This document shows, in pieces, positions 5,002-46,221 of a stretch of 64,000 nt of DNA. Below the pieces are notes generated by a model. That model worked only from the letters and a program-made list of their open reading frames with translations, did not search any database and had not been told where the DNA came from. Source of the DNA: Saprospiraceae bacterium (lineage in GTDB: Bacteria > Bacteroidota > Bacteroidia > Chitinophagales > Saprospiraceae); assembly GCA_016715245.1 (NCBI GenBank), contig JADKAS010000006.1, positions 20,870 through 84,869 of the forward strand. The letters run 5' to 3'. How positions within the stretch are numbered: the stretch's first letter is position 1; each line of letters begins with the position of its first letter. A program made the translations under genes and the position numbers.

Positions 5002-6314
5002 TTAAAATTCTGTGGTAATGTGAAGGAAACCTTCTGAAGAAATAGCAGAAGCAAATGTGATAGAAATTCCTACCGACAATAAAGCCACTACTTCCCCACT
5101 CTGATCAATCAATACCCGGACGTCTTTTTTTTGAAAAGAGGGAATTTTTTTTTCTGCCAATAATTTTTTAATATCTTTTTTACTTCCTTTCATTTGTAAT
5201 GGCTTGAAAACGTCTGAATTTTTCCATGTACGAAGGAAAAGCGGAAAGTGTAGTTTTGATATATCAATTCCCTTATTTTCTCCTATGGGAAGTTTTTCTA
5301 TCTTGCTAAAAGAGATCTTCTTATTATCCAACTTAAGGAAAAAAGGAAGATGGGAAATCTCATGGATGTCGTCAGAAATGGGTTCGCCCAACAATGGTCT
5401 CACCACCCAAAAATCAGGTTCAACGCTCAGAATATAGGCATCATTTTTAACATAATTTCCTGTGACCTGATGGTGAAATAAAGCATTGACCTGCGATTGA
5501 TTAAAACCAAATTTTTCCAGCAAAAAATACAACATCAAACCCTGGTTTTTCATTTTTAGTAAGGGTTCAATATGGAGAAAATACAAATTATCCTTTCTGG
5601 AAATACAGGTATTTCTGTATACTTCCAACAAATCCTGAAAGAGCTCATTATTATCCTGCAGGTTTTTTATCGTTGTGTAAAACCCTTCTCTTTTTCTGTA
5701 ATCATGGGAATCAAAAACAGGCAATATTTTGTTTCGAATAAAATTTCGGGTATACTTTGTTTGTTGGTTGCTGGAATCTTCTCTGTAAAGGATGTTGTTG
5801 TCTGTTGCAAAATTCTGTAAATCTTTTCTTGTGGCAAATAAAAGTGGCCGAATTACTTTATCATTCTGTACCGGAATTGCGGCAAGGCCTTGCAAACCTG
5901 TTCCACGCATGGTATTGATAAAAAAAGTTTCCAAGACATCGTCTTTATGATGTGCTGTGGCTATTTTATCATAACCTTTATTTTCTGCAATCTGGTAAAA
6001 ATCTTATATCTTATTCCCCTTGCTTTCTCCTGCAAATTGGAACCCACCAACAAGTCTTCAGGAATATTTTCGGTATAAAAAGTAATGGAATGGGTATCAC
6101 AGAATTTTTTAACAAACAATGCATCCGCATCCGATTCACCTCCTCTTAATTGGTGATTGATATGGACAATGGCAAAAGGAAATTCGCTTTTCAAAAACAG
6201 ATATGCCATGACCATAGAGTCTATACCTCCCGAAACCGCAAGTAACGTCCGGTCACCTTGATGGAGAAGTTGTTTACTGACGACAAATTTTAAAAATTCT
6301 TCCTGTACATTCAT
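5002..6314 (-). CDS. tilS: tRNA(Ile)-lysidine synthase, one frame break
   Basis: N-terminal piece (stop at 5961, ATG at 6312-6314: MNVQEEF...LLAVSGGIDSMVMAYLF, PP-loop SGGxDS). C-terminal piece 5002-5934 (TMRGTGLQGLAAI...). The second frame read upstream gives YQIAENKGYDKIATAHHKDDVLETFFINTMRGTG (TilS AHHxDD motif). The join is at the A5 run 6007-6011. Confidence 0.85.
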
Positions 6315-7242: not shown

Positions 7243-10200
7243 ATGAAAGATCTCATGATTCCCCCAACTTCACGTTATTACATATCGTTTACTAAATGTG
7301 TATTAATGTTAACCTTATTGTCATTTCTGCCTATATCTCAAACAGAAGGACAAAACTGGACCCCAGTGGAAAGTTCAGAAATCACCATCCAAACAGGAAG
7401 TATAGACATTGTACCAAACAAGTTTCAACTTTACAGAGTTAATGATGCAGAAATAAAAGCTATTCTGGATGATGCACCTACCGAAGAAGAAAAAGTCGAT
7501 GGAGATATGTCCATGGGAAAAAATGTAATCATAAAACTTGGGTTACCTGACGGAGAATCAGAAGAATTTATGATTTATGAATATAAAATGATGGAATCCG
7601 GCCTAGCTTCACAATTTCCTGATTTTAAAACTTATTATGGAAATTCCATTTCAAATCCTTTACATCATGTAAGAATTGACTACACAACTCATGGTTTAAG
7701 AGCTATGATTTTATCTCCTGACGGAAGTATTTTTATCGACCACTTCCAGCGAAATGATAAAAACCATAAAATTGTTTATTATAAAAAAGATTTCAGCAAA
7801 CCCATAACCTGGTTTTGTGGTGTAAAGGGGAACGGATTTTCGGAAAGGGATAAAAATAAAATTGATTCAAGGATCGGCGATTGTGGCATCAGACACCAAT
7901 ACCGTCTTGCCATAGCTGCTACAGGTGAATATACAACATTTCACGGAGGTACAGTGGCTTTAGCCATGGCTGCCATTATGACTACCATGAACAGGGTAAA
8001 CGGTGTGTTTGAAAAGGATTGTGCGGTTAGAATGATATTGGTGGCTAATAACAGTTCAATAGTGTATACAAACCCGGCTACAGACCCATATACGAATGGA
8101 GATCCTGATATGATGATAAATCAAAATCAGGCAAACATTGATGCAGTTATTGGAAATGCCAATTACGATATAGGACACGTTTTCGGAACCAATTCGGGTG
8201 GTTTAGCCGGTTTGGGTGTGACATGTGCCGCAGGTGCCAAAGCACTTGGTGTGACAGGTAGTAGCGCACCGATAGGAGACCCATTTGATATTGACTACGT
8301 CGCTCATGAAATAGGACATCAGTTTAACGCCAATCACACACAATATAATGATTGCAACAGAAATAACCCGACTTCCGTTGAACCGGGTAGTGCTTCCACA
8401 ATTATGGGTTACGCAGGTATTTGTCCTCCTGATGTTCAAAGCAACAGCAATGATTATTTCAGTACAGCCAGTTTATATGAAATACGGCCTTTTGTGGTAA
8501 GTAATACCTGTGATGTAGAAGTTGTGGTTACAAATTCAGCGCCTTCTGTTACAGCATTGAGTAATTATTCAATACCAACTTCTACACCATTTGTACTTAC
8601 AGCTTCAGCCAGTGATCCTAATGGTATGTTGACTTATTGTTGGGAACAGATTGATATATTTACAGGTACTCTGAGGACTATGCCTCCGGCTGCTACAAAT
8701 GTGGACGGTCCTATGTTCAGGTCTTTAACTCCTATAGTGAGTCCATTGAGGTATTTCCCCAATTTACCGGACGTTTTAAATAATGTAAATCCAACATGGG
8801 AAGAATTGCCATCTGTTGGAAGGCCTATGAATTTCAGAGTCACCGTAAGAGATAATTTTGCAACTGCAGGTTGTACTGGTGAAGCACAAAATATAGTTAC
8901 TACAGTGGCTGGAACCGGACCTTTTTTGGTTACTTCCCCTAATACTGCAGTTACGTATACAGGAAATTCGTCACAAACTATTACCTGGAATGTGGCCGGC
9001 ACAACAGCAGCACCCGTTAGTTGTGCTAATGTAAATATACTTTTAACCACCGATGGAGGCACAACTTTCACTTCACTGGCGTCTAATACGGCAAATGATG
9101 GTTCTGAAAGTATAACCATTCCAAATATCACTACATCTACTGCAAGAGTCTGGATACAATGTGCCAATAACATATTTTATGATGTTTCTAATGTTAATTT
9201 TACTATTCAGGCAGCTTTACCCCCTTGTGCTGATCTGGTTTTTCCAAGTTGTACGACCGCTGTCAACATTGATTTTGCCGGTTTTGGAGGAGCAGGTTTT
9301 TCTCCTATGCCCAATGCCAATCAACTTTGCTCCAACCACTGGGCATGGACAGGCTGGAGTAATGGTAATTTAGCTTTCGGGGGTACACAAACCACGGCCA
9401 ACACAGATTACACCAGAGGAAATACGCCTGGTGGTGTAACAACAGGCGGTATTTACTCTTTAAATAACGGCGCTTTATATATACAGCCAGGAGGAAGTGA
9501 TTGGGCACCCGGTACAGCAACACTGAGGATTCAAAATACTTCGGGTTCCAACATGACGGATATGATGGTTGGCTATGACCTGCTGGTAAGAAATGATCAG
9601 GCGAGAAGTAATAGTTTTAATTTTTCTTACTCACTGGATGACATAACATATACTCCGGTTGCATCTCTGGATTTTACATCAACTGCAGCAGCAGATGCAA
9701 TGCCAACAATTGTTACTGTTCCAAGGTCAACAACATTAACCGGACTTACCCTTGCCAACAATGCATACATTTATTTCAGATGGTCAGGTGCCGATGTCGG
9801 AGGAAGTGGTTCAAGAGACGAGTTTGGTTTGGACAATCTTTCATTTACACCTGCTTGTAATAATTGCCCCAGCTTTACAAATTTTACGCCTAATAATGTT
9901 ACCGTTGTAAACAGCACATGTTCAGCACCGACTTGTATGCTTATGGGAGGTATAATAAATGCGGCAGTAAATAATTGCCCTTCAGGATCAACATTACAGT
10001 ATTCGACCGACGCCGGAATGACCTGGAGTACAACGGTTCCTGTATATGATCAGGATGGTCCTTCACAAACTGTAATCACCAGATGTAACTGTGATTTGAA
10101 CAATGCTATAAGCAGTAGTCCTAGCAATCCTGTATCCACAAGTCCGGGCACTTGTCCTCCATCATGTAACTGTACATTAAATGGTATGGTTTCTAATGTA

Positions 10201-13200
10201 GCATGTAATAATAGTGAAACAACCAATACTGCAGATGATTTTATCACTTTTGATTTAATTGTGACAGGTGGCGGCGGCAACAGTTCTATGAGTATTACTA
10301 CAACTCCGGGTACCCCTACCCCAAATTCAGCTCTTGCTTATAATGTAACTCATTCCATCACTATGCAGCCTGGTTCTGCGGGAGGTGGAAATATAATATT
10401 GTTGGCAACAGATGATAACAACAGTGATTGTTACACAACCATGATCACAGATCCGGGTACCTGTTCAAACATCGATTTCACTGTCAGTATTTCTGACCCG
10501 TGCGTTTGTAATAATGATGCCACACCAGCTCAGAATGACGGTACTTTTGATGAACAGATAACAGTTTTAGGCCCTGCTGGAGAAACCATTACAGGTACTT
10601 GTACAGGTTGTTCGCCCACTGCTTTGACATTTACTGAAACTTCACCGGGTGTATATGAGAGTAATATATTCACACATATTGATAATTTGGGTTACAATGT
10701 TAGCATAACTGCTGGTAATTCTCAGTTAAATATCGGCAATAAATGCGCTTACCCAAATGTTGCCATAGACCCTATAGGCCCTCTTTGTAATAATGGAAAT
10801 CCTGTTGCTTTGACAGCAGTGATAACCGGAGATGACGGAAGTGGAGGATATACCTGGTCTGGAACAGGTGTCAGTGGAAGTTCATTTGATCCTTTCAATC
10901 TGGCAGCAAACAATTACACCATTACCTTAAATTATGACGGCGTTGACCTAGGAAATGTGTCTCCTGACGGAGGTATAACACCGGCTTTTCCGGGATGTAT
11001 TCAGGTTGCCACAGGTTCAGTGACAGTATTGGATTCTGTTGCCATAACTCAGCCACCTAATCAAACTTTATGTGCGAATACATCAACAAACCCGGTTAAT
11101 TTTATGTCTGCTCCTTCCAATGTAAAATATAGTTGGACGAATGACAATACAGCCATTGGACTCGCAGCAAGCGGGATGGGCAATATCCCATCGTTTATAG
11201 CTACTAATCCCGGAAGCACACCCATTACGGCTAATATTACGGTAACGGCAATGGTGATGGACACTTTTAACTTTACCGGACAAGTTCAACAATATATTGT
11301 TCCTCCAGGTGTCACCTCTATCGAAATTGAGACCTGGGGAGCCCAAGGCGCCAATGGCACCGTTGGTAATGCACCCGGCAATGGTGGATTAGGAGGCTAT
11401 TCAAAAGGCACATTGGCCGTTACACCGGGAGAGACCCTATACCTTAATGTCGGTGGACAAAATGGGTTTAATGGAGGTGGTCCTGCCGGCATCCATATTG
11501 GAACAGGAGCACAAACTTTTCCCGGAAATGGTGGAGGTGGTTCAGACATTCGTCAAGGTGGAGCTGCTTTGGCAAATAGAGTTCTAGTCGCCGCAGGTGG
11601 TGGTGGTGGTGGTGCCGCAAATAATAATAGTTGTACAAGTAATGCACAAAGAAACGGAGCAGTCGGAGGTGGACTTACAGGAGCTGATGGTGCTGGCAGC
11701 GCAAATGAGTGTACTCTTCCAGCAGCAGGTGGAGGAATGGGAGCCAATCAGGTTAATGGTGGAATTGGAGGAACTTTTACCTTTAACTGTAATAACAATA
11801 CACTGCCAGGTTTTGCAGGACTTTTAGGCCAGGGGGGTGCAGGCGGTAACGGAGGAAATAACGGCTGTTTTCCCAACTCGCAAGGTGGTCCCGGCGGCGG
11901 TGGCGGCGGTGGTTATTTCGGCGGCGGCGGCGGCGGTGCAGGTTTTGGCGGCGGCGGTGGTAGTGGATCCGGCGGCGGCGGCGGCGGTGGATCATCTTAC
12001 ATTGGTGGGGTTACCAACGGCATGACTACTTCCGGAATCAAATCCGGAAATGGAAGAATTGTTATTAATCCGGGATTGTACGCAGATTGTATGCCTTCAC
12101 CAAAAACATTTACTATTACCGTAAATCCTTTGCCTGATCCTCCTGTTATTCCTAATATCACCGTTTGTCAGGGTGGTAGTACTTTGATTGTAGCTGGTAC
12201 CATCACAACACCAACAGGTCCACCGGTGTCCGTAACCTATAATTTTGAAGGGGACAATCCGGCCTCAACCACGACTAATAATATGTTTGCAACAGGAAAT
12301 AATGCCGTTATAGGTACAGGTGTCTCCACTTTGACATTCCCTCAAGGATGCGGTTCACTGGATGCGATGTCAGCAAACAACTGGTCTCAACCTACTGAAG
12401 TTGCCGCGGTGGCTAACAATGACTATTTTGAATTTGTGGTCAACAACACTTCAGCAGTAAACACCCTGGTGATTAATGGGTTTTCATTTTCTGGAAGAAT
12501 TTCAACAACCGGGCCAACCAATTGGGCATTGTACCAAGGTACTACAGCTATAGGATTTTTTGGCACTACGACATCGGCGTCAACCCCTACTCCATGTGGT
12601 AATTATACTACAAATACATTAAACTTAGTCGTCGCTCCAGCTTCAAATGCAATAATAAGAATTTATGCCTGGGGTAATACACCAGCACAGAGTACAGGAA
12701 CGTTCAGAATTGACGATGTAGTGGTTTCCGGTACTTCCAACCCTCCTTCCAACAATTTCAAATTTTATAATGTAGACCCAACCGGAGGTATGGCCACCCC
12801 AATATTTACTGGATCTCAATATGACCCAATGACTACTCCGGCTACCTCACCTCAATCCATTTGGGTTACAGAATGTTCTGCAGCCGGATGTGAAAGTCTG
12901 CCTACACGGGTGATTGTAACTGTATCCGCAAATCCAACCATAACCATACCTACCATCAACCCCTTATGCGCACCCAATTTTTTCAATATAAACAACTTCA
13001 ATTTTAATCCAAATCCACCAGGAGGAACTTTTTCATACCATAATACACTTTCAGATGCCCAAATGGATATCAACCCAATTACAAGCGGGTTAAATAACAT
13101 AAATACAACAAGGACAATTTATGTAAGATATGAACTGGCAAACAATTGTTTTACTGTGGGTACACTGCAATTTATTGTGCATCCCATGCCTCCACCACCT

Positions 13201-16200
13201 GTTGTTCCAGCCACGGTAAGTACATGCGCAGGAGAAAGCCCACTGATAAAAGTTAATATAGATAATTACCCTGTTGAATATTTATGGAATTTTGAGGGCA
13301 ACATAACTGGAAATGGTATTTCTTCCCAACCTACCATTGCAGGAAATGGTCCGGTGCAAAGTGCCGGTGCTGGTCTGAATAGTGTTGGTTTTCAAGTAGC
13401 CGGATCCGGTTGTGGTGATGCCATAACTTCTGCAGGTTATGAAGCGGGAAATATCACCCTTGCTGCAGCCGTGGCATCTCAGGAGTATTTTGAATTCTGT
13501 GTAGGCTCAGCTTTGCCAGGTATTATATATGCAGGAGTAAATGGTATTACCATCAGGCATAGAGCTTCCGGCACAGGACCTATAAACTGGGCAGTGGTTG
13601 CCTCCAACAATCTAACGACGCCTCTGGCTTCCGGTATAGTAGGTACTGGTTGTACACTTCATACAGGAGCTTTTGCTTTAAATACGGCTACTTGTTACAG
13701 AGTGTATTACTGGGGAGCAACCAGCTTAAGTGGCACCCTGAGAATCGACGAATTCAGAGTCGCTGCTAATTACCAAAATAACGCCACTTACCGGTTTTAT
13801 ACCGTTAATCCAACAACAAATCCAAATGCGACACCAGTGTTTACAGGTGTTTGCTATCAAACAAACCTGACCGTTCAAAATGGTCCAACCACCTATTGGG
13901 TTACATGTCAGAATCCGGTTACAGGTTGTGTGAGTAATCCGTCAAATGTCATAGCGCAGGTATTTCCTGACCCTGTCGTAACTGTTTTTAATTCATGCGC
14001 TGGTGGAAGTACCGTTACATTTCAGGTATCCGGCGCTACAAGTGGCACATGGGGTGTTTCCGGAGGTGGTACGATCAACCCCACCACAGGTGTGTTTACA
14101 CCCACCACAGCTGGATGTTTTACAGCCACATACTTAGCCCCGGGAAATTGTGATGATACCAAAAGTTTTGTAGTCTTTCCTTCTGCCCCTGCGGCGCCAA
14201 TGATAAGCAACACTTGTAACACATCATTCGTAGTTCCTGTGCTTCAACCCTTTGGAGGATTTACTGCACAGTATAGCTTTAATGGTGGAAATACCTGGGG
14301 TACTTCCAATACTTCACCAACAACACCTGGTTGTTATCAGGTAGTTACAAGATATATTTTAACCAATACCTGCGGAACAACTTTAGCAGGGTCTGTTGGT
14401 CCGGCTGCTTGTCAACAAAGCGGTATCAGAGAAGTTGTTATATTTCCTGCAGCTCCACCGGCACCGGTTATTTCAAATACATGTAATACTGCCATTACCA
14501 TACCTGTTTTAACAGCTGTTACCGGATTCAGACCGGAATATAGTTTTGACGGAGGTATGACATGGTCAACCAACAATGTATCTTCCACGACCCCAGGATG
14601 TTATGCGACAAGAAGCAGGTATGTACTCGCAGCAGCATGTGGAACTCCTTATCCGGTAGGAACTACGGCGCCTCCGGCTTGTCTGCAAAGTCCTGTTACC
14701 AATGCCGTTATTTATCCGGCAGCCCCGGTTATTACAATGCCTCCGGCAACTTGTATGACAAACTTTGTATTGCCAACAGTGACTCCGGTGCCTAACTTTA
14801 CCATAGAATACAGCATTAATGGAAGTTCGTTTACTTCAACCCCAATGAGTACTATGGCTCCGGGCTGTTATACCATTATAACAAGATATGTATTAACCAC
14901 TACATGCGGAGCAACACTAGCAGGATCACCAGGGCCTGTGGCTTGTGCGCAAAGCAATACAGTGATTGCCAATGTTTTACCTATACCAGATGTTTTGGAT
15001 CAACCGGACATACTCGTGTGTAATCTTGAACTTATAAGCCCTCTACCTTTTATAAGTACTGTAGCAGTACCGACCTGTCTGGGAACGAGTATAGAATATT
15101 TTTGGACAAATAGTAATCCTGATATTGGATTACCTGCTTCCGGCATGGGTAATATTCCACCTTTTACGGCTCAAAACCCAGGTTTAGCAATTATAACCGT
15201 CACACCAAGGATTACCTTAAATGGAGTTATCTGTGAAGGTACATCCATTTCATTCAATATTGTTGTTCATCAGCCTATCGCTTTGGCGTGTAATAACGGA
15301 CTCAACATTAGTGTTGACAGAAATTGTGGTATCAAGGCCTTTGTAGACATGTTTTTAGAAGGAACTTACAATGACTATTTTTATAGTGTTCGGTTTTTTG
15401 CTTACACTGGCGTTGAAATTGATATTAACGACATACATTTATTTTTGGGTACACGACTTCAATATGAGATAATTGACAATTGTAATGGAAACAGATGTTG
15501 GGGATATGTAACTTTTGAAGACAAATACCCACCGGTTATAATTTGCCCGGATTTCGAAGTAAATTGTATAGAGGAACCAAATCTTTACCTTCCAATCAAT
15601 TCACCTGATTTTATTGGTTATCCTGAAATTCAGGACAACTGTAGTGGAGCAGAAGAAAACCTTAACATGTCTTATCTGGAAACAGGAAATACTTGTAATA
15701 AGGTAATTATCAGAAGATGGCAGACTTCTGACCAAAGTGGCAACCTCTCTAATGAGTGTTTACAAACGATTAGGGTGAGGCCATTATCATTTTCGGAAAT
15801 ATTTATTCCAAATCCATTGGTTTTTCTTGAGTGTAAAACAGCTACAGACCCTGCATCTATCGTTGCTGCAACAGGTGATGTAAGAGACGGATATGCATTT
15901 GTATTGATTGACGGAGAGCCTCTTCCTTTGACAGGTCAGGTTTGTAACATCGTTGGATCTTATACTGACTTACCAATTGAAGCATGTGGACCTCACTGCC
16001 ACGGTAATATAAAAGTAATCAGAACATGGCAATTTATTGACTGGTGTCAGGGAATCGTGTCTCAGCCGGTTACTCAGTTGATCAAATCTGCTGACCTTGA
16101 GGCTCCAACTTTCATTCTGAAAGATACCATCGTAAGTACTTCACCTTGGTATTGTGCTGCTGATTTTGATCTTCCAAGACCTTGGGAACTTCATGACAAT

Positions 16201-19200
16201 TGTGATATCAACCCTACATATTATGTAAGTGGTCCTGGTATTGTTACGATCACAGGAAATCAAGTTGACGGATACAGAGCAAAAGGTGCTCCTAAAGGAC
16301 AACATATTTTCTGTTATACAGCTGAAGACTGTTGTGGTAATATTTCTACTCAGTGTATGATTGTTACCGTAGTTGACAAAACACCTCCGGTACCTTCCAC
16401 CAAACAAAATATCGTTCTTGGTTTAGTATCAGGTGGACCTGGTCAGGATGAAGGCAATGCTAAATTGTTTACTCACCACGTGGACAACTATTCTTATGAT
16501 ATGTGTTCAGCGGTAAGACTTGAAATCAGAAGACCTGCAGGTGCGCCTCAGTGTAACAATGATGGTAGAATTGACCCTGTTACAGGAAAGCCTTACAACA
16601 ACAACGTAACTTTCAACGACAACAAACCTAGATTACATCAGGATGACAACATTGATGATACAGATAATGGAGAGTTTGTTAAATTCTGTTGTGAGGATTT
16701 AAAAACAGGTGTTGACATCGACGGTGACGGCGAAGTTAATATCGGATACCATGAAGTTATTTTGAGAGTATGGGATGATGGAGATATGAATGCTCAATGG
16801 GGAAGTGCAGGTGACAACTACAACGAAAGCTGGGCTTACGTTAAAGTTGAAGACAAAGCTCCACCGGTAATTCAGTGTCCACCAAACATGACTATTCACT
16901 GTGACTGGGCTATTACGTACAGTTCTGACTTAGGTAGTGGTGCACAATCTACAGAAGGCGTTGACTTTACAAAAACAGGTCTACCTGTTGCATACGGAAC
17001 TTGTGGTCCACGTCCAATCACATTCAGAGACAATACAGGTCAGTTGAACCAGTGTAAATTAGGAAACGTAACAAGAGATTTCTTTGTAACGCCTGCAAAA
17101 GCTGGAGTAGATCCACCTTCTTGCAGACAAGTCATCACTATTTTACCAAGTACTTCTACGCAACCATGGATAGTCACTCCACCGAGTGCAGCTCCTGTGG
17201 CTATTACATGCGCTGACCCTACTGCTACAGAGATCAAAGACAACGGGCCTAAGTGGGTCAACGGACCTTGTGATGTCATCGGAGAAAACATCAAAGTTCA
17301 CAAATTTTTATTTGAAGATGGTGTTTGTATAAAATGGAGAGTTGAGTATAACTATATTAATTGGTGTTATCCTGAAGGTCATCCTGACCATGCTAGAGGA
17401 CCATACTTCAAAGACTTTATGTTCTTCGACAATAATAAGCCTGTAATCGATAATTGTGATCCTTTAATGTTTGGTGTAGATGCCAACTGCGAACACAGAT
17501 TGGTATTGACTAACAAAGCCACAGACACAGGTGGATGTAATGGTGATAACGGATGGTTGAAATGGCAGGTATTCATCGACTTATGGGCTGATGGATCAGA
17601 TGACTGGGAATTCTCAAGTTTCTTACCTGTAGGCAACGACGAGGCCAATGCAGCTAACGGAAACCTTGCTGCTATCAGAGATGATAACAATAACGGAATT
17701 CCTGATATCTATGTAGCTCCAACGGCCGAAAATGGCATTATTACGATTACCGTTCCTGAAATCATTGTTGGCAAAATGAGTAACCACAAAGTAAGCTGGA
17801 AAGTAACAGACGGATGTCACAACCACACTACTTGTCACCAACCAGTAATGGTAGTGGACAAAAAACCACCTACCCCTTACTGTCTGAGCTTAAGCACAGC
17901 ATTGATGGCTGATCCTGACGGAACAGGACCATTGAGACCAATGGTAGAATTGTGGGCTATTGACTTCAACGTAGGATCATTTGACAACTGTACACCACAG
18001 GAAGACTTGTTGTTTACATTCAATAACTGGGCACCTCAGGTTACAGATACTATTATCGATGGAAGAACAGTAAATATTGACGTTCCTCACTATTTTGATG
18101 TAAATGGTGCAGTATGGCCATATCCTACTACTAATGCAGATGTATTGTCAAGATATAATAGAGGTGATTTACAATTGTGGTTACCTAATCTTAGAAGTTC
18201 TGCAAGAGTTTGGACTGAGTCTGTCATGGCAGGAGAAAGAAAAATAGAACTTCCCGTAATGATGAGCGTATGGGATAAAAAATTCGAAGTTGATTTCTGT
18301 ATGGTTAATTTGACAATCATTTGTAATACATGTCCAATTGAAGGCAGTTCCAGAATTAGTGGTACCGTCACTACCGAGGAAGGTAAAGGAGTGGCTAATG
18401 TTGAAATAAGATTGACAACAACCGGAAATCCTTCCAACACCTCAGAAATGACCGATGTAAATGGTTATTATTCTATTCAGAATATTCAGGCTTCCTCAGG
18501 ATTACTTTATCCTTATAAGAATACAGAACATGGAAACGGAGTCAGCACCCTGGATCTTGTGCTCATTCAAAGGCATATATTGGGCATTCAGAAATTTGAA
18601 AGTCCTTATAAAATTATGGCAGCAGATGTCAATAATGATACTAAAATCAATACCGTTGATTTGGTAGAACTCAGAAAAGTTATTTTGGGCGCTTCACCTG
18701 TTTTCACCAATAAGAGCTGGAGATTTGTAGATGCCAAGGTTACCATGGATATGAATAGCGTCTTTCCTTTCTATGAGACGGTGAATGTCAATATCAACAC
18801 GGCAACGATGGACAATATGAATTATATGGCTGTTAAGATAGGTGATGTAAACGGAAGTGCATCTACAGATGTAATCAATGCACAGTCAGAAACCAGAACA
18901 GCTTCAAGACTTGATTTGACAGCAGCTGAAAGAAGCGTAGAAGCCGGTGAAACATTTGAAATAGCAGTTACGGCAGCTAACTTTAATGAAATCTTCGGAT
19001 TCCAGTATACAATGAACCTACACGGAGCGAACTTCGTAGATGTAGTTTCTGGTGCTATTGAAGTAACTGAATCAAATGTTGGCGTAATCTCAAGTGATGT
19101 AATCACGATGAGTTATGCAGCAAGAGAAGCAGTTTCTCTAAGAGCTGATGAGGTATTGTTCACCATCGTATTGAAAGCTGACAAAGCTGGTCAATTTAGT

Positions 19201-19569: not shown

Positions 19570-19594
19570 AGTTTTGACTGACAACCATAGTAAA

Positions 19595-19632
19595 AGAAGC
19601 CCTGGTGGAAATTCCACCAGGGCTTCTTTTTT
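19595..19632 (+). terminator. rho-independent terminator of giant gene 1
   Basis: agaagccctggtgg (19595-19608) / loop aaatt / ccaccagggcttct (19614-19627), a perfect 14-bp stem, followed by ttttt. Confidence 0.85.
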
Positions 19633-19918
19633 AATATTGATTACCAAATATAAACTTTGGACACCACATATCACTACATCAAAATAGATATATTTTAAAA
19701 TAATTGCAACTCAAGTAATTTAAATAACATTGATTTACATATTTAATATAAATATATATAATTATAGTTTATTTTATTTGGTAGACTTAAACTATTTGTG
19801 CACCTTTACACGATTTTTACAATACCGTCGTTTCGGTAATGGTCAATATATTAAGTAAGTCTACAACTTTTGATGTTCTATATATAAATAGGCTTTTTTA
19901 ATATTTTACCAAAAGACC

Positions 19919-22900
19919 ATGAGCGTAAAACCTAATTCCCCAAAATTTAGCTTTTTAGTAATAAGCTTTTTTCTTTTTTGTTGCAGTAGTTTATTTGCAC
20001 AGTTCACTTCGAAATCAGAATTGGCAAGACAAATTTTAATATCCAGGGCAGATGAGTTTAATCTGGATATAACCTCCCTTAATCAAATGCGTCTTTCCTC
20101 AGAAACGTACAGTAGATTAAGTAAATTGAATCATGTTTATTTTGAACAGCATATTGAAGAAATTCCGGTTTATAATGCCATTCTCAATGCGCATATCACT
20201 TCAAATGATGAGTTGCTCACAATAGGCAACAGGTTTTATTCCAATGCTTTAACAAATAAATCCCTGGGGTTGCCTCTCATTCCTCAACTTGAAGCTATAT
20301 CAAGAGTTTGTAATCATTTGGGATATTCATTTAATGGCAACCTTACCATAGTACAAAACATCGGAGGTCCAACTAAAAAGATTGTGTTTGACAAAGGAAA
20401 TATATCTCTTGAAAACATTCCTGTCAATCTGGTCTGGCAACCAATTTCTGAAAATTATCTGGTTTTAGCATGGAATGTCTCTATTTATGAAGCAAGTGCT
20501 CAAAACTGGTGGAATGTCAGAATTGATGCCGTTACAGGTGAAATACTTGACCAAAATAATTGGGTGGTTCAATGTAATTTTGACATGGATTGTGGTACAG
20601 ATCACAAATCTCTTGAAAACAAGAATACTAAGCATCATTTCATTCCAAAATCTGTTCAAAACCACAATACCCAGGATATTATTGTGATCCAGGGTACAGT
20701 TGTAGTGAGCCCCATGGATGGCAGTTCCTATCGGGTTTATCCGGAACCTATAGAAAGCCCCAACCATACCTTACCACTTCCCCCGGTAGATGGAAGAACT
20801 ACAGTTAATGAACCGGCTGATGCTACAGCTTCGCCATTCGGCTGGCATGATACCAACGGAGCTATAGGTGCAGAATTTACTACTACCCAGGGAAATAATG
20901 TACACGCGTATACTGACACCAATTTTGACAATATGCCAGATCCGGGATCCAGCCCCGATGGTGGAAGTGGACTTGACTTTCTTTTTCCTTTAGACCTTAC
21001 CATGGCCCCAAGTACTTATAGACCTGCTGCAGTTACCAATTTATTTTACTGGAATAATTTTATCCATGATTTTGCCTACGCTTTTGGATTTGATGAGGTC
21101 AGTGGTAATTTTCAGCAAAACAATTATGGAAACGGTGGATTAGGCGCAGATTATGTGCTGGCTGAAGCTCAGGATGGTTCCGGAACCAATAATGCAAATT
21201 TTGCTACTCCGCCGGATGGAAACAGGCCTCGTATGCAAATGTTCATTGGAACAAATCCGACACCGGATGTTGATGGTGATTTTGACAATGGCGTAATAGC
21301 CCATGAATACGCCCACGGTATTTCCAACAGATTTACTGGTGGTCCAGCCAATACTAGTTGCCTTGGAAATCAGGAACAAATGGGAGAAGGATGGAGTGAC
21401 TTTTATGCATTAATTACGACAATAGAACCCGGAGACTTAGGTACTGATTCAAGAGGTATAGGAACGTATTTATTTGGTCAGCCGCCAAATGGTCCTGGTA
21501 TCAGACCAACCCCTATTCTACCAATATGGCTATTAACACAGCAACTTATGACAATATAAAAACACTATCTATACCACATGGTGTAGGTTACGTCTGGTGC
21601 GGTATGATTTGGGATTTATTATGGAAAATGGTTGATGTTCATGGAAATCCGGCTGGTATTAACATTGCTATAAACCTTGTAAATGAAGGGATGAGATTAC
21701 AACCGTGCAGTCCTGGCTTTGTTGACGGAAGAAACGCCATTTTAGCTGCTGACGTTGCTATGTACGGAGGTGCTAACCGTTGTTACATTTGGGAGGTTTT
21801 TGCAAGAAGAGGGCTTGGTTTCAGTGCCAATCAGGGACTTTCAACAAGCAGAAGTGATGGAACCCAAGCTTTTGACCTACCACCATTTTGTATTTTTGAT
21901 GTAACCCCTGAAGTTGTTTCCATTTGCAAACCAAATAGTGCTCAATATACTGTATCTAATGGAACAGCTGAAACATTAACTTTATCTGCAACAGGAAACC
22001 CACCAGGCACAGTTGTATCGTTTCTTACTAACCCTGTCCCAACTAACGGGACCAGTATAATGACAATTGGAAATACAGCAGCCGCAGCCAATGGAACCTA
22101 TATAATAACTGTGACAGGAACTGGTATTTCAAATACTGTTACTGCAATGGTAACCTTAATTATCCAAAGTAATGTTCCTGGTGCACCAACATTGGTCACA
22201 CCTCTTAATATGGCTATGAATCAAATCAATCCTTTGTTGACATGGAGCCCTCAACCAGAATCAGAAACTTATAGCATTGAGGTAGCTACCGATCTGGGAT
22301 TTTCCAATATTATTGCAAGTGCAACGGGTTTAACGGTAAATATATTCCAGACAAATAATTTAATGTCAAATACTACATATTACTGGCGTGTGCGGGGTGT
22401 AAATGGATGCGGAACCGGTTCATATTCACCTATATTTTCATTTACAACAGCAAACATTGCCTGTATTACAATTGCCAGCACTGATGTACCTAAAACAATT
22501 GCGCCCGATCCCCCAAGTACAACATTATCAATATTGACATTCCCTAATGTTTGTGGAATTATTACAGATGTAAATTTACGAAATCTTAATATTACGCATT
22601 CATTTGTTGGTGATCTGAATATCGAATTAATCAGTCCTATGGGCACTGTTGTCCGGGTTTTCCAACAAGCTTGTGGTGGTTCAGATAATATCTTAATTAA
22701 TTATGACGACGAAGCAGCTTCGCCAACGATTCCTTGTCCACCAACAAACAATGGATTTTACATTCCATTTGCTGCTTTATCAGCTTTCGACGGGCAATCG
22801 CCTTCGGGAGTCTGGACTTTGCGTATTCTTGATGAAGCTCCTTTAGATGGTGGAACTTTAAATGCCTGGAGCCTGGAACTGTGTTATGCAAATACATTTA

Positions 22901-25900
22901 CTCCAGCTCCTATTGTTGTTACAGATAATTCCGGTAATACAGCAAATGATGGTATTTTGTGTCAGGGAGGAACAGCCACACTTACTGCTTCCGGAGGCAC
23001 TTCATACCTATGGAGCACAAATGAAACTACACCAGCGATTTCTGTCAACACCTCAGGCATGTATTCAGTTACAATAACAAGCGGAAGCTGTTCAGGTAGT
23101 GTATCAACCACCATAGTTGTCAATCCGAATCCAACGATTTCGGGACCGACATCAGTCGCTGTGGGGGCAAGTATAAATATTATGGGATCGGGTACCCCAG
23201 CCATGACAAATCCTTATATCTCATCCAACACTTTAATTGCTACAGTAAATAATGTGGGTTTAGTAACAGGCATAGCCCCAGGAATGACAGTAATTACATA
23301 TACAGATATTAATGGTTGTACTTCAACAAGAACAATAACAGTTTCTGCAATTACAACCTCACTTCCACCAAACGGAACTGCAAATGTTGCATGTCCGGCA
23401 TTGGCAATAGCTCCAACTCCACCAATAAATATTACGCCAATAAATCAAACTTGTCCTTTGGTACAACCTGTAGGCCCTACCATCACAAACAACCCTAATC
23501 CAATTAGTTGTGAAGGCACAAGGGAGTATGCTTATACTTACACCGATTGTGCAAATAATTTTATAGGAACATGGACGTTTACTTACACAATTGAGCGCCA
23601 ACCATTTACTTTACCAGCCAATGGCGCTGCAACTGTGGCTTGTCCTGCCCTGGCAGTTGCTCCTACTCTACCGACTGTTACAAGTAATTGTGGTGAAGTG
23701 TTAACTCCGGCTGCTCCTGTAGTTACGAATGTCCCAAATCCTTTGACTTGTGAAGGAACCAGAACCTATGCTTATACTTACACAGACTGTGAAGGCAATA
23801 CGGCTGTATGGAGTTTCGTTTATACTGTCGAAAGATCACCTTTCACAGTACCTGCAAATGGTAATGCAACAGTGGCATGTCCGGCTTTAGCAGTGACTCC
23901 TACTCCACCGGCAGTTTCAAGCAATTGTGGTGAGGTTATCACACCTACCGGCCCGGTAATTACCAATACTCCTAACCCTTTGACTTGTGAAGGAACCAGA
24001 ACCTATGCTTATACTTACACAGACTGTGAAGGCAACTTTTCTGTCTGGAGTTTTGTATATACCATAGAACGAAATCCATTTACAGTACCTGCAAACGGAA
24101 CTGCAACTGTTGCCTGTCCTGCTTTGGCAGTTGCTCCAACCCCACCAGTAGTTTTGAGTAATTGTGGAGAGACTTTGACGCCAACAAGTCCGGTAATTAC
24201 GAATGTTCCAAACCCAATCACTTGTGAAGGAACCAGAACCTATGCTTATACTTACACAGACTGTGAAGGCAAACTGCTGTACTGGAAGTTTCGTTTATAC
24301 TGTCGAAAGATTACCTTTCACTGTACCTGTAAAATGGTAATGCATCAGTGGCATGTCCGGCTTTAGCAGTGACTCCTACTCCACCGGCAGTTACAAGCAA
24401 TTGTGGTGAGGTTTTAATACCAACAGGCCCGGTAATTACCAATACTCCCAACCCTCTGACTTGTGAAGGCACAATCACCTATTCATATACATTTACGGAT
24501 TGTGAAGGTAATACTGCTGCCTGGAATTTTATTTATACGGTGGAAAGATTACCTTTTACTGTTCCCGCAAATGGAGCATCAATTATTTGCGGACTCGCGC
24601 AGGCAACTCAACCGGTTCCTCCTGTAATTACCAGTAATTGTGGTGAGATTCTAACTCCATCTGGACCAGTTAGAACTGATGTAATAAACAATGGTGGAGG
24701 AACCCGTACGTATACCTGGAACTACACTGACTGCGAAGGCAACACAGCTGGATGGAATTATGTATATACTATAAACCCGATTCCTGTTATTACCCTTCAG
24801 CCTGAAGACCAATCAATATGTATTGGTAGCGACGCCACATTTGTGGTATCTGCAACCGCTCCAGCACCGGCTACGCTTGGTTACCAATGGCAAAGATTTT
24901 CAGGTGGAGTTTGGAATGACATCCCTGGTGAAACAAATGCAACCCTGATTATCACAAATGTTGCAGCTGTGGATAATGAATCTTTATTCAGATGCATAGT
25001 GAGTAGTATAAACCTTAATGGTGTCAACTGCCCGGTAATATCTGATGAAGCGGTACTTTTTGTTCATATCCCGGTTGCACTCGCCTGTAATGACCATGTA
25101 CGCATCAGTGTAGATCAGGAATGTTCAATAAAATCTTATGTTGATATGTTTTTAGAAGGAACATATAATTTTAACTTTTACAGCGTTACCTTTAAAACAG
25201 ATGGTGGTGTCGAAATCGACATAAACGACATTCATTTATTTTTGAATCAAAGATTGAGACACGAAATTATTGATATATGCAATGGTAATAGATGCTGGGG
25301 TTATGTAACTTTCGAGGACAAATACCCGCCTGTTTTAAGTTGTCCTGATGTTACCATTTCATGTTTGGAGCAGGATCGATTATTCCTTCCTATTGACAAC
25401 CCTGATTTTATTGGCTTACCTGAATTGTCAGAAAATTGTGGAGATGCTTTGGAAAATCTCCATTACAACTATCTGGAAACAGGAAATACTTGTAATAAGG
25501 TAATTATCAGAAGGTGGCAGACGTCTGACCAAAGTGGCAACCTCTCCAATGAGTGTGTTCAAACTGTCACCGTTAATCCTCTTTCTTTCTCTGATGTATT
25601 CGTTCCAAATCCATTGGTTTTTCTTGAGTGTAAAACAGCTACAGACCCTGCATCTATCGTTGCTGCAACGGGTGATGTAAGAGACGGATATGCATTTGTA
25701 TTGATTGACGGAGAGCCTCTTCCTTTGACAGGTCAGGTTTGTAATATCGTTGGATCTTATACTGACTTACCAATTGAAGCATGTGGACCTCACTGTCATG
25801 GTAATATCAAAGTAATCAGAACATGGCAATTTATTGACTGGTGTCTGGGAATCGTTTCCGCTCCGGTTACTCAGTTGATCAAGTCTGCTGACCTTGAGGC

Positions 25901-28900
25901 TCCAACTTTCTTCCTGAAAGACACTATCGTAAGTACATCACCTTGGTATTGTGCTGCTGATTTTGATCTTCCAAGACCTTGGGAACTTCATGACAATTGC
26001 GATATCAACCCTACATATTATGTAAGTGGTCCTGGTATTGTTACGATCACAGGAAATCAAGTTGACGGATACAGAGCAAAAGGTGCTCCTAAAGGACCAC
26101 ACATTTTCTGTTACACAGCTAAAGATTGTTGCGGTAATTATAATACACAGTGTATGAGAGTAACCGTAGTTGACAGAACTCCTCCTGTACCTTCTACCAA
26201 ACAAAATATTGTTCTTGGTTTAGTACCAGGTGGACCTGGTCAGAATGAAGGCAATGCTAAATTGTTTACTTACCACGTGGACAACTATTCTTATGATATG
26301 TGTTCAGCGGTAAGACTTGAAATCAGAAGACCTGCAGGTGCACCTAAGTGTAACAACGAAGGAAGAGTAATCAACCCTGCAACAGGCGAGAGGTACAACA
26401 ACAACGTAACTTTCAACGACAACAAACCTAGATTACATGGTGATGACAACATTGATGATACAGATAATGGAGAGTTTGTTAAATTCTGTTGTGAGGATTT
26501 AACCACAGGTGTTGACATCGACGGTGACGGCGAAGTTAATATCGGATACCATGAAGTTATTTTGAGAGTATGGGATGATGGAGATATGAATGCTCAATGG
26601 GGAAGTGCAGGTGACAACTACAACGAAAGCTGGGCTTACGTTAAAGTTGAAGACAAAGCTCCACCGGTAATTCAGTGTCCACCAAACATGACTATTCACT
26701 GTGACTGGGCTATTACGTACAGTTCTGACTTAGGTACTGGTGCTCAATCTACAGTAGGCGTTGACTTTACAAAAACAGGTCTACCTACAGGATACGGAAC
26801 TTGTGGTCCACTTCCGATCAGATTCAGAGACAATACCGGTCAGTTGAACCAGTGTAAAATAGGAAACGTAACAAGAGATTTCTTTGTAGGATCAGCTGAT
26901 GTTAATGTGGCTCCTTCTTGCAGACAAGTCATCACTATCAGACCAAGTACTTCTCAGCAACCATGGATAGTCACTCCACCGAGTGCAGCTCCTGTGGGTA
27001 TTACATGCGCTGACCCTTCTGCTCAACAGATCAAAGACAACGGACCTAAGTGGGTCAACGGACCTTGTGATGTCATCGGAGAAAACATCAAAGTTCACAA
27101 ATTTTTATTTGAAGAAGGTGTTTGTGTAAAATGGAGAGTTGAGTATAACTATATTAATTGGTGTTATCCTGAAGGTCATCCTGACCATGCTAGAGGACCA
27201 TATTTCAAAGACTTTACGTTCTTCGACAATAATAAACCTGTAATCGATAATTGTGATCCTTTAATGTTTGGTGTAGATGCCAACTGCGAACACAGATTGG
27301 TATTGACTAACAAAGCCACAGACACAGGTGGATGTAATGGTGATAACGGATGGTTGAAATGGCAGGTATTCATCGACCTATGGGCTGATGGATCAGATGA
27401 TTGGGAATTCTCAAGTTTCTTACCTGTAAACAATGACGTATCGAATGCAGACAACGGAAACCTTGCTGCTATCAGAGATGATAACAATAACGGAATTCCT
27501 GATATCTATGTAGCTCCAACGTCCGAAAATGGCATTATTACGATTACCGTTCCTGAAATCATTGTTGGTAAAATGAGTAACCACAAAGTAAGCTGGAAAG
27601 TAACAGACGGATGTCACAACCACACTACTTGTCACCAACCAGTAATGGTAGTGGACAAAAAACCACCTACCCCTTACTGCTTGAGCTTAAGCACAGCATT
27701 GATGGCTGATCCTGACGGAAACGGACCATTGAGACCAATGGTAGAATTGTGGGCTATTGACTTCAACGTAGGATCATTTGACAACTGTACACCACAGGAA
27801 GACTTGTTGTTTACATTCAACAACTGGGCACCTCAGGTTACAGATACTATTATCGATGGAAGATTAGTAAATATTGACGTTCCTCACTATTTTGATGCAA
27901 ATGGTGCAGTATGGCCATATCCTACTACTAATGCATCTGTATTGACAAGTTACAATAGAGGTGATTTACAATTGTGGTTACCTAATCTTAGAAGTTCTGC
28001 AAGAGTTTGGACTGACGTTGTATTTACCGGTGGCACCAACAAAGCTGATGTTCCTGTAATGATGAGCGTATGGGATAAAAAATTCAGAGTTGATTTCTGC
28101 ATGGTTAATTTGACAATCATTTGTAATACATGTCCTACAGGTGGAGGACAAGGCAGAATAGCCGGTATCACCTCTACTGAAAGTGGACAAGGTGTTAATG
28201 ACGCAACTGTATTTATCAACAGAAATGCGATTGAATATCCTAAGTCAATGCTGACGGTAGATGGTTTATATGCATTTGATGATGTTGCACCAAGTGTAAG
28301 CGGAGCTGACGGAGTACAATTATTTGCCAACAAAGGCGGAGATTATGATAACGGTGTATCTACACTAGACTTAGTATTGATCCAAAGACATATCTTGAAT
28401 ATGGCAAAATTGGATAGTCCATACAAAGTGATAGCTGCAGACGTAAACAATGATGCTAAGATCAATACCATTGACCTTGTAGAATTGAGAAAAGTAATCT
28501 TAGGTACTTCAGAAGAATTTACCAATAAGAGCTGGAGATTCCCGACGGCAAATCAGGTTATAAACGCTGAAAACGCATTCCCTTACAATGAAGTAATTAA
28601 CTTACTTGTAAGCACAAATGATGTTGACGGACAAGACTTTGTAGCTGTCAAAATAGGTGATGTAAACGGAAGCGCATCTACAGATGTAATCAATGCACAG
28701 TCAGAAAGCAGAACAGCTTCAAGACTTGATTTGACAGCAGCTGAAAGAAGCGTAGAAGCCGGTGAAACATTTGAAGTAGCAGTTACGGCAGCTAACTTTA
28801 ATGAAATCTTCGGATTCCAGTATACAATGAACCTAAACGGAGCGAACTTCGTAGATGTAGTTTCCGGTGCTATTGAAGTAACTGAATCAAATGTTGGAGT

Positions 28901-29384
28901 AATTTCAAGTGATGTAATCACGATGAGTTATGCAGCAAGAGAAGCAGTTTCTCTAAGAGCTGATGAGGTATTGTTCACCATCGTATTGAAAGCTGACAAA
29001 GCTGGTCAATTGAGTGACATGATCCAACTTAACTCTAATGTAACCGCAGCTGAGTCTTATGTAGGTTCTACTATCAAAGTTCAGAATATCGGATTGACAG
29101 TAGGTTCTGTTGATGCAGCAGCTCAGATTGAGTTGTTCCAAAACGAACCAAACCCATTCAAAGCAACAACAAATGTAAACTTCTTCATGCCTAAAGCAGA
29201 CAATGCAAGATTGACTGTTTATGATGTAACTGGTCGAGTAATCAACGTAAGAAACATCAATGCAGTACAAGGTTTGAATACAGAAGCATACACAAGAGAG
29301 CAATTGGGTACTTCCGGTATGTTGTATTACAAATTAGAAAGTGGTGATTTCACTGCTTCTAAGAAAATGATCATCATCGAATAA
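19919..29384 (+). CDS. giant T9SS-secreted multidomain protein with N-terminal M36 (fungalysin-type) metalloprotease; two frame-break sites (about 3150 aa if repaired)
   Basis: ORFs 19919-21559, 21526-24366 and 24348-29384. Order of parts: signal peptide MSVKPNSPKFSFLVISFFLFCCSSLFAQ; FTP-like propeptide; HEYAHG...GEGWSD; FN3-like; P-domain; Big_2-like; six HYR-like 79-aa repeats; Ig-like; then the stalk shared with gene 1 and a T9SS CTD. Piece boundaries fall inside domains: GIRPTPYSTNMAINTATYD is restored by one extra C at 21510-21513, and the second break is inside repeat 4. Confidence 0.8.
21302..21400 (+). other. M36 zinc site (HEYAH ... GEGWSD)
   Basis: cat gaa tac gcc cac ggt at 21302, in frame with ATG 19919. 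gaa gga tgg agt gac (EGWSD) starts at 21386. This is the motif pair I associate with fungalysin-family M36 peptidases. Confidence 0.75.
22455..22884 (+). other. proprotein-convertase-type P-domain
   Basis: ITDVNLRNLNITHSFVGDLNIELISPMGTVVRVFQQACGGSDNILINYDDEA...GQSPSGVWTLRILDEAPLDGGTLNAWSLELC. Confidence 0.7.
23360..24785 (+). repeat. six tandem HYR-like coding repeats, period 237 nt (79 aa)
   Basis: The landmark tgtgaagg(a/c)ac... recurs at 23509, 23749, 23986, 24223 and 24462. Consensus PANG.ATVACPALAV.PT.P.V.SNCGE.LTP..PVITN.PNP.TCEGTRTYAYTYTDCEGN...W.FVYT.ER.PFT. Confidence 0.9.
28350..29381 (+). other. dockerin-like (28350-28505), cohesin-like (about 28713-29115) and T9SS CTD (29124-29381) of giant gene 2
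   Basis: NGVSTLDLVLIQRHILNMAKLDSPYKVIAADVNNDAKINTIDLVELRKVILG; TASRLDLTAAERSVEAGETFEVAVTAANFNEIFGFQYTMNLNGANF...; QIELFQNEPNPFKATTNVNFFMPKADNARLTVYDVTGRVI...KKMIIIE. Confidence 0.6.
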
Positions 29385-29409
29385 AGTTTTGACTGACAAC
29401 CATAGCAAA

Positions 29410-29447
29410 AGAAGCCCTGTTGGAAATTCCACCAGGGCTTCTTTTTT
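29410..29447 (+). terminator. rho-independent terminator of giant gene 2 (copy of 19595-19632)
   Basis: agaagccctgttgg / aaatt / ccaccagggcttct followed by ttttt. One stem mismatch relative to copy A (g to t at 29420). Confidence 0.8.
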
Positions 29448-29556
29448 AATATTAAAAACTAATTTTTTACAACATTTAACAATAAAATTCACAAATCAAA
29501 ACCTTGAAAAATATCCAACATATAGAAAAAAATATATTTTATACTGTAAATTTTTA

Positions 29557-31549: not shown

Positions 31550-31550
31550 A

Positions 31551-32384: not shown

Positions 32385-32419
32385 TTGTTTTCATCTCAAA
32401 ATATCTTAAAATTTATCCA

Positions 32420-46203: not shown

Positions 46204-46221
46204 TTAATTAATTATATTATT

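Follow-up and report, generated by a model that had tools for sequence, protein, structure and literature searches.

Saprospiraceae are abundant degraders of protein and other polymers in wastewater flocs and aquatic systems, and their surface machinery is largely uncharacterised. Here, we analyze 64,000 nucleotides from a Saprospiraceae bacterium (assembly GCA_016715245.1, contig JADKAS010000006.1, positions 20,870–84,869 of the forward strand; hereafter the window), in which two giant genes lie in tandem. Gene 1 and gene 2 open with different metalloprotease heads and end in copies of one and the same C-terminal cassette of about 1,430 residues. The likely explanation, in our view, is that the genes are adjacent, separately terminated paralogues for giant surface proteins of the type IX secretion system (T9SS), in which widespread metalloprotease units have been joined to a lineage-specific cassette. 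This is a case of ordinary domain shuffling and gene conversion and not a new kind of system or principle. The locus points to a large family, with sequence clusters in the hundreds, several copies per genome and a conserved core of about 1,000 residues, and a definition of the cassette would improve the annotation of thousands of giant proteins now listed as ‘hypothetical’. It would also offer a way into the attachment of Saprospiraceae to particles, filaments or prey and the digestion of these.

The window comes from a long-read metagenome-assembled genome (MAG) of the activated-sludge type; among related genomes, isolate names and contigs named ‘tig’ are found that are typical of long-read activated-sludge assemblies. 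A sister genome of the same species (GCA_016704045.1, locus L001) is 99.41% identical to the window across 25 kb, with indel differences at 10 positions only. Domains were called with Pfam and NCBIfam at curated cut-offs, folds were predicted with AlphaFold2 and compared with Foldseek, and tandem repeats were located with TRF. The coordinates of the features are collected in Table 1.

Two protease heads on a shared cassette

Gene 1 is a single open reading frame (ORF), uninterrupted as first predicted from the letters alone (the original prediction), and its orthologues have 4,078 (P0149) and 4,087 amino acids (sister genome). Four Pfam models, Reprolysin_4, 3, 2 and 5, match residues 218–415 above cut-off with E-values from 2e-30 to 5e-22. 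Within these matches lies HEIGHQFNANH (residues 355–365, positions 8305–8337), which had been singled out as the mark of a metzincin unit; compared with HExxHxxGxxH the spacing of the zinc motif is correct and Asn replaces Gly, and a candidate Met-turn, TIMGY, follows downstream. By homology and motif, the head of gene 1 is thus a metzincin, a reprolysin-like M12B peptidase with predicted activity. The N-terminus (...CVLMLTLLSFLPISQTEGQ) is hydrophobic by eye and a candidate signal peptide. The first 660 residues have more than 7,800 relatives, usually proteins of 740–1,140 residues with a P-domain and/or a T9SS C-terminal sorting domain (CTD). Further along, this bacterial gene has an ALK/LTK receptor-type glycine-rich domain, in partial overlap with a GGC-rich 27-bp tandem repeat at 11892–11992.

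Gene 2 occupies three ORFs in the window (19919–21559, 21526–24366 and 24348–29384, the last with a GTG start); the second is identical to MBK8819100.1 and the third to MBK8819101.1 of a Saprospiraceae MAG, where the contig measures 241,008 bp. It had been predicted as a single gene with an FTP propeptide and an M36 unit, of which the domains and the motifs HEYAHG (at 21302) and GEGWSD (further on) stand, whereas the frameshifts between the three ORFs had gone unnoticed. The PF02128 profile is matched in two parts, one per ORF (positions 1–253 with E 8e-91 and 258–368 with E 1e-31), and by homology and motifs the head is an M36 fungalysin, again with predicted activity. Its N-terminus (MSVKPNSPKFSFLVISFFLFCCSSLFAQ), likewise hydrophobic by eye, is a candidate signal peptide. 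The model for T9SS-dependent M36 proteins, NF038113 (869 positions), matches gene 2 at both ends, and the pieces score 535, 162 and 22 bits against an equivalog cut-off of 885. Judged by these scores, gene 2 is a relative of NF038113 and not an equivalog, being fragmented in the window and about 2,200 residues longer. The middle region holds a proprotein-convertase P-domain and six HYR_4C repeats, which form a tandem array with a period of 237 bp (23600–24574); fn3-like and Ig_3 matches fall below cut-off, and Big_2 marginally below.

The cassettes were expected to be collinear copies from positions 15268 and 25065 onward, and this is what the alignment gives: the two genes run in parallel from there, past the stop codon and into matching terminator hairpins. 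At the DNA level they are about 90% identical (90.05% for 15306–18335 versus 25103–28135 and 89.7% for 18565–19638 versus 28380–29453), and at the protein level 84% (residues 2653–4108 of gene 1 versus the translation of 24996–29381). The identity is uneven. It is 67–78% at the 5′ end (15306–15760) and mostly 85–99% from approximately 15764, where strong homogenisation begins; the transthyretin-like domain and the dockerin fall in a divergent block at about 18300–18890 with 56–72%, and the final 700 bases have 97–99%.

The first and largest part of the cassette, the stalk core, is predicted to be a rod. With 55 homologues as input, AlphaFold2 gives a confident, all-beta model (pLDDT 84.9), and from the length of about 1,025 residues we estimate roughly ten immunoglobulin (Ig)/cadherin-like beta-sandwiches. 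Foldseek places the neck of the giant surface protein GhpA first (9flp_A, TM-score 0.12), followed by cadherin and protocadherin arrays. These TM-scores are low, as would be expected of a rod that is flexible and multi-domain, and searches with whole multi-domain models resolve only ‘tandem beta-sandwich rod’ and ‘cohesin-like’. Dozens of Cys, Asp and Trp residues are invariant in alignments of cores that are 25–50% identical. In the copy of Pfam-A that was searched nothing matches the core, and the HYR models PF02494 and PF23237 are absent from the stalk; HYR_4C matches are confined to the head of gene 2 (23353–24752). Where HYR-like/Ig-like repeats had been proposed, the model shows a beta-sandwich rod, and the D-K-x-P-P boundaries resemble those of HYR repeats by eye only. 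Searches of the cassette against the chains of the PDB, by sequence and by profile, returned matches at the level of the dockerin only and no sequence-similar structure for the core.

The last 446 residues are modelled with a pLDDT of 89.1 as a beta-sandwich, a three-helix dockerin, a cohesin-like beta-sandwich and a sorting domain. For the carboxypeptidase-regulatory-like domain of the original prediction, the model provides the beta-sandwich and the PF13620 score stays below cut-off. The anticipated dockerin and sorting domain are both above cut-off in both genes: Dockerin_1 (PF00404) scores 26–31 bits (cut-off 22.9), TIGR04183 36 bits (cut-off 23) and PF18962 27.5–33.6 bits (cut-off 27). 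The dockerin of gene 1 also matches dockerins in the PDB by sequence and profile and forms three helices at model residues 107–153. For the cohesin-like module, Foldseek with the C-terminal part has the cohesin-FN3 construct 2w1n on top (E 7e-8) and generic Fab folds next, and with phmmer the same cohesin, that of NagJ, is matched weakly (E 0.15). Homologues do carry Cohesin (PF00963), although no Pfam Cohesin match at E ≤ 1 was obtained in the window, and the call of a cohesin-like module rests on the predicted fold, this weak match and the homologues. By their sorting domains genes 1 and 2 classify as T9SS type A cargo, presumably exported. T9SS machinery has been reported in all five wastewater Saprospiraceae genera studied (PMC9304909); none appeared among the Pfam-scanned ORFs of the window, in a scan that was not aimed at such genes.

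Table 1 Features of the tandem locus and its surroundings (positions in the window).
Feature	Positions	Strand	Evidence or remark
Gene 1, T9SS cargo: reprolysin-like protease, long repeat region and cassette	7243–19569	+	Single ORF, 4,108 aa
Reprolysin-like (M12B, metzincin-type) catalytic domain, gene 1	7894–8487	+	Pfam
Glycine-rich domain, ALK/LTK type, gene 1 head	11323–12066	+	PF12810, E 3e-14, aa 1361–1608
Stalk core, gene 1	15268–18342	+	About 1,025 aa of disulfide-rich tandem beta-sandwiches (Ig/cadherin/HYR-like); model; no Pfam match
Carboxypeptidase-regulatory-like (transthyretin-like) domain, gene 1	18355–18492	+	PF13620, 26–30 bits (cut-off 32.3)
Dockerin type I-like module, gene 1	18541–18684	+	PF00404
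Cohesin-like beta-sandwich, gene 1	18895–19290	+	Model residues 223–354, pLDDT >90
T9SS type A C-terminal sorting domain, gene 1	19333–19560	+	TIGR04183; PF18962, E 2e-6
Terminator hairpin 3′ of gene 1	19592–19630	+	18-bp stem, then T run
Gene 2, M36 protease-cassette gene	19919–29384	+	About 3,155 aa; three ORFs in the window
FTP propeptide, gene 2	20084–20236	+	PF07504, E 3e-7
M36 fungalysin catalytic domain, gene 2	20726–21828	+	PF02128; divided by the break at 21510
Frame break 1 of gene 2, near 21510	21505–21514	+	C4 run; C5 in sister genome
Middle region, gene 2	22237–25004	+	Pfam; TRF
Frame breaks 2 and 3 of gene 2	24265–24335	+	Within HYR_4C tandem array
Cassette copy, gene 2	25065–29381	+	Core, dockerin (28347–28499), cohesin-like domain, CTD (29148–29375)
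Terminator hairpin 3′ of gene 2	29407–29445	+	Copy of gene 1 hairpin, one stem mismatch
Two adjacent tRNA genes	42257–42451	−	Rfam

A family-wide cassette and its precedents

A word-indexed search with the cassette gave 241 relatives, almost all named ones from Saprospiraceae. At thresholds of E ≤ 1e-3, 1e-10 and 1e-30, an exhaustive search returned 3,403, 2,330 and 757 cluster representatives, respectively; named sources are all Saprospiraceae or close relatives, including Aureispira, Portibacter and Lewinellaceae. The same holds for the listed members of 443 confirmed genomic stretches, with several per genome. Two or more cassette copies stand within 10 kb of each other at 15 of 80 loci, and there they nearly always share one strand. 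In the host protein the start of the core varies between about residue 20 and residue 4149, and its end usually lies some 400 residues short of the C-terminus. The cassette is a mobile evolutionary unit within Saprospiraceae, family-wide, multi-copy and often tandem. In the open-access literature we found no description of it.

A constant C-terminal part with differing N-terminal heads had been predicted from genes 1 and 2 alone, and the pattern turns out to be broader. Among 88 proteins in which the cassette start could be located, 19 are head-less and the remainder carry at least 16 unrelated head classes, so the stalk is not tied to a single head type. The heads contain HYR, P-domain, FG-GAP, lamin-tail (LTD), SdrD_B, DUF11, C-type lectin, PKD-like, SprB and similar Pfam domains. 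Twelve giant members have HYR, P-domain, FG-GAP, LTD, SdrD_B or lectin heads and none has an enzyme; among the family proteins examined, protease heads were found only in the orthologues of genes 1 and 2 and in one M36 protein (P0106). By domain content, then, the heads look adhesin-like in nearly all cases and proteases are rare exceptions. The same species holds a second tandem cassette pair, on contig JADJAX010000007.1 of the sister genome (L002, 6001–17843): the first gene encodes 2,071 residues with a PKD-like head, and the next one 1,612 residues with HYR, C-type lectin, dockerin, cohesin and CTD.

The protease units are common without the cassette, and for this reason we regard genes 1 and 2 as ordinary T9SS proteases fused to a lineage-specific cassette. 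T9SS M36 proteins (NF038113) and reprolysin-like T9SS proteases are very common groups in Bacteroidota; gene 2 has an ordinary head of the first kind and gene 1 one of the second. The usual T9SS metalloprotease is about 740–1,140 residues long and consists of the protease, sometimes a P-domain, and the CTD. Genes 1 and 2, in contrast, have 2,200–3,300 extra residues, cassette included, between protease and CTD.

The original prediction knew of no described family with such an arrangement, which overlooks the gingipain and HagA genes of Porphyromonas gingivalis. rgpA, kgp and hagA encode T9SS cargo with identical C-terminal adhesin repeats and CTD and differing N-terminal parts; the repeats are identical within and between the genes, and recombination among them yields variants (PMC5266723). 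By analogy of architecture, this set is the closest precedent. As in genes 1 and 2, the N-terminal parts differ (an Arg-specific protease in RgpA, a Lys-specific one in Kgp, none in HagA), and shared C-terminal modules and a CTD follow. The gingipain set also has a signal peptide and a propeptide, to which a candidate signal peptide in each of genes 1 and 2 and the FTP propeptide of gene 2 would correspond. The building blocks are unrelated: gingipains combine C25 cysteine proteases with cleaved-adhesin/DUF2436 modules, none of which has a Pfam match in gene 1 or gene 2, and genes 1 and 2 combine M12B or M36 with an Ig/cadherin-like rod, a dockerin and a cohesin-like domain. The resemblance is therefore architectural only. 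It also differs in scale, with three genes in one species on the one side and a whole bacterial family with mostly non-enzymatic heads on the other.

A second comparison lies within the bacterial family itself. GhpA of Aureispira is a giant T9SS substrate whose functional head, at the N-terminus, is carried by a long Ig-like stem with disulfide links that is anchored at the outer membrane (bioRxiv 10.1101/2024.01.29.577165), and its neck tops the structural matches to the stalk core. GhpA has 52 Ig-like repeats, forms heptamers and is adjoined by PorP/PorE homologues. Genes 1 and 2, unlike GhpA, have a type A CTD, a dockerin, a cohesin-like module, protease heads, and rotamase and housekeeping genes as neighbours. 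The GhpA chains in the PDB set were matched neither by phmmer nor by profile search with the cassette. GhpA and SprB share the head-on-Ig-stem design within Bacteroidota and are not homologous to the cassette.

The combination of dockerin and cohesin-like fold recalls cellulosome scaffolds and the cohesin of the toxin-complex protein NagJ (GH84C) of Clostridium perfringens, and suggests docking at the surface. In contrast to the cellulosome, the cassette has one dockerin and one cohesin-like module per chain, and its cargo is proteases and adhesin repeats instead of glycoside hydrolases. Anchorage would proceed through T9SS, whereas that of the cellulosome type uses sortase or SLH domains.

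Mosaic stalks and the proposed role of the cassette

The 2,071-residue protein of the second tandem pair, which lies on another contig of the sister genome with the fourth family member next to it, served as a third paralogue. Along the three stalks the nearest relative switches block by block: gene 1 is closest to paralogue 3 at 16514–17260 and closest to gene 2 near 17261–17410, and gene 2 is closest to paralogue 3 at 18161–18888. Many other stalk blocks are 97–100% identical in all three. The 430 informative sites fall into 71 runs, compared with 192 ± 7 in permutations (p < 1e-4); the mosaic blocks are hundreds of bases long, with up to 174 concordant sites in succession. Between the paralogues, dN/dS is 0.33–0.43. 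With the third paralogue included, the three stalks read as a mosaic, and the pattern bears the mark of gene conversion under purifying selection. This makes the locus a clean case of concerted evolution in surface proteins of non-pathogens.

On the reading that we favour, the cassette runs from a disulfide-rich rod of Ig/cadherin-like domains through a transthyretin-like domain and a dockerin to a cohesin-like domain and, last, the type A sorting domain. Following established T9SS biology, the protein would be exported by Sec and then cross the outer membrane through T9SS, after which the type A CTD would be removed and the protein fixed to the outer surface. The rigid rod would act as a spacer that holds the N-terminal protease tens of nanometres off the cell, where protein of the floc matrix, or protein on cells nearby, might be its substrate. 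Through the dockerin and the cohesin-like domain, cassette proteins may be linked with one another or with further proteins that bear a dockerin. Saprospiraceae have been reported as protein-hydrolysing and often attached (PMC9304909), which fits a protease on a spacer.

Several points weigh against this account. That the protein is anchored at the surface, that the protease is active, that the rod serves as a spacer and that cohesin and dockerin bind at all are steps that we infer, and the cohesin assignment in the window is weak by sequence, leaning on the predicted fold and on homologues. The first dockerin loop, read by eye, departs from what we take to be the canonical calcium-binding pattern. 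Head-less members exist and conservation is strong, which suggests a function of the cassette beyond that of a spacer.

What that function might be is addressed by two further explanations. The cassette could be an assembly module, with the stalks of paralogues bundling side by side in the manner of GhpA or chaining through dockerin and cohesin, so that one structure would carry several heads. We consider this unlikely. Core conservation far above the needs of a spacer, with dozens of invariant residues at 25–50% identity, speaks for it, as do the occurrence of head-less members, the likeness of paralogue stalks maintained by gene conversion, the GhpA neck as top structural match, and the presence of a dockerin and a cohesin-like domain in one chain. 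However, the GhpA match at a TM-score of 0.12 is generic for Ig arrays, sequence similarity to GhpA is lacking, and PorP/PorE-type neighbours are absent. Going one step further, the cassette could form a self-assembling scaffold particular to Saprospiraceae, in which stalks of different paralogues would co-assemble, laterally as GhpA strands do or head to tail by dockerin and cohesin. Proteases, lectins and adhesin heads would be co-displayed on it as a protein-degrading counterpart of the cellulosome, with conversion selected for stalk compatibility; we rate this as unlikely.

Frame breaks, probable assembly errors and the proposed head exchange

In the window the reading frame of gene 2 is broken three times. 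Break 1 falls in a short C run and breaks 2 (approximately 24270–24292) and 3 (approximately 24319–24330) in the 237-bp tandem repeat. Of the 10 indel differences from the sister genome, 9 are in gene 2: the C4/C5 difference at 21510, and the others grouped at 23950–24330, again in the tandem repeat. Mismatches also peak here, with 51 in 24000–25000 against 1–12 per kb elsewhere. The breaks are at differing sites in the two genomes. In the sister genome the M36 domain is uninterrupted and an ORF of 1,318 residues spans break 1, and in two further genomes of the species gene 2 ORFs of 2,579 and 2,835 residues pass all three breaks of the window and break elsewhere.

Other genes of the window are broken as well. 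tilS, for tRNA-Ile lysidine synthetase (5002–6310, minus strand), is split by a frameshift near 5950 that puts the N-terminal PP-loop part and the C-terminal part in different frames, which indicates assembly indel errors. The gene for a TonB-dependent receptor (CarboxypepD_reg, Plug and beta-barrel; 959–3417, plus strand) is divided into overlapping ORFs at 959–2113 and 2062–3417, probably by another assembly frameshift. Between two strains, pN/pS is 0.16–0.28 across most of gene 2 and 0.20 in gene 1. Because break sites differ between near-identical genomes and are read through elsewhere, and because the essential tilS and the receptor gene are also split and pN/pS is low, consensus errors of long-read assembly, and not decay, most likely account for the frame breaks, and gene 2 is probably intact. 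Frame breaks of this sort in long-read MAGs can disguise an intact giant gene as three genes or as a pseudogene. Phase variation at 21510 was considered and rejected, given that the tract is merely C4/C5 and that tilS and the receptor gene are broken too.

Some evidence points the other way. Gene 2 is unbroken in none of the approximately eight assemblies of the species on record, in contrast to paralogue 3, which is intact in 7 of 10; and pN/pS reaches 0.74 in the middle region of gene 2, a value from 13 differences only. Some real decay of gene 2, or a systematic error hotspot, is therefore possible. Taken to its end, this line would make gene 2, with its three frame breaks, a true decaying pseudogene, gene 1 the only functional copy and the shared stalk a relic of duplication. 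We hold that to be improbable: the breaks vary among genomes that are 99.4% identical and each is read through elsewhere, the sites are a homopolymer run and a tandem repeat, an essential gene is broken in the same assembly, most of gene 2 evolves at the low pN/pS given above, and its catalytic motifs are intact. Several assemblies (proteins P0124 and P0132) break or garble gene 2 at yet another site, ...LMADPDGNGPLRP... in the stalk (approximately 27660–27720); the recurrence suggests a systematic basecalling hotspot and not random errors.

If the assembly contains errors, the shared stalk or its mosaic could itself be an artefact, from a gene duplicated by the assembler or from mixed paralogue reads. 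The assembly clearly holds indel errors, repeats of 90–100% identity invite mis-mapping during polishing, and the mismatches with the sister genome cluster in the repeat region. The mosaic could in part result from short-read polishing with mis-mapped paralogue reads, and caution is also due because paralogue 3 was taken from the sister genome, a different assembly from that of the window. As a general explanation we find an artefact very improbable, given that the copies are about 10% apart and include a divergent block of 0.5 kb, that an independent genome has the same tandem pair, that full-length orthologues and the third paralogue occur in JGI, ENA and Logan assemblies, and that the mosaic extends over blocks of hundreds of bases with up to 174 sites in agreement. 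Duplication of a single copy by the assembler, named at the outset as a possible refutation, is rejected on the 10% divergence and the independent tandem pair.

The original prediction had likened the locus to polymorphic-effector logic turned around, with a constant C-terminal part for the T9SS signal and anchorage and a variable enzymatic part at the N-terminus. In such a system, enzymatic heads would be exchanged actively while the stalk for delivery and anchoring stays the same. That many head classes share one cassette, that tandem arrays are common and that copies recombine would agree with this, yet we regard it as highly doubtful. Polymorphic effectors have a variable toxin tip, an adjacent immunity gene and often orphan cassettes, none of which is seen with genes 1 and 2. 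As far as the protease scan reaches, no orphan heads were found beside stalk genes at the 80 loci, nor were immunity-like genes; downstream stand rotamase and other housekeeping genes. The heads are overwhelmingly adhesin-like repeats and not toxins or enzymes. The recombination that was detected homogenises the constant part, and heads were not seen to be exchanged; between stalks in direct repeat, recombination would remove a head rather than swap it. Head classes also track stalk divergence, as expected of old fusions, and PKD-type heads are all on the closest stalks.

The genes downstream of gene 2 encode peptidyl-prolyl isomerases (PPIases), an amidohydrolase-family protein (Pfam Amidohydro_1), GMP synthase and similar functions. 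Three genes directly 3′ of gene 2 (29600–33760, plus strand), two of them with PpiC-type rotamase domains, are kept in the sister genome, and it is a speculation that these PPIases are linked to the folding of the giant secreted proteins. The tenth indel difference from the sister genome is here, in the ORF at 32420–33760 (plus strand): an A8 run at 33665, A7 in the sister genome, alters the C-terminus of a rotamase-domain protein (446 versus 452 residues). An Rfam scan of the window matched two tRNAs only, both far from the protease genes. A 349-residue protein (46201–47250, plus strand) has an AhpC/TSA-thioredoxin-like domain together with a type I dockerin, 42% identical to that of gene 1, and no Pfam match to a T9SS sorting domain; it could be a docking partner of the cohesin-bearing cassette proteins. 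A further T9SS cargo gene at 49420–51624 (plus strand) encodes 734 residues with FG-GAP repeats and a Por_Secre_tail.

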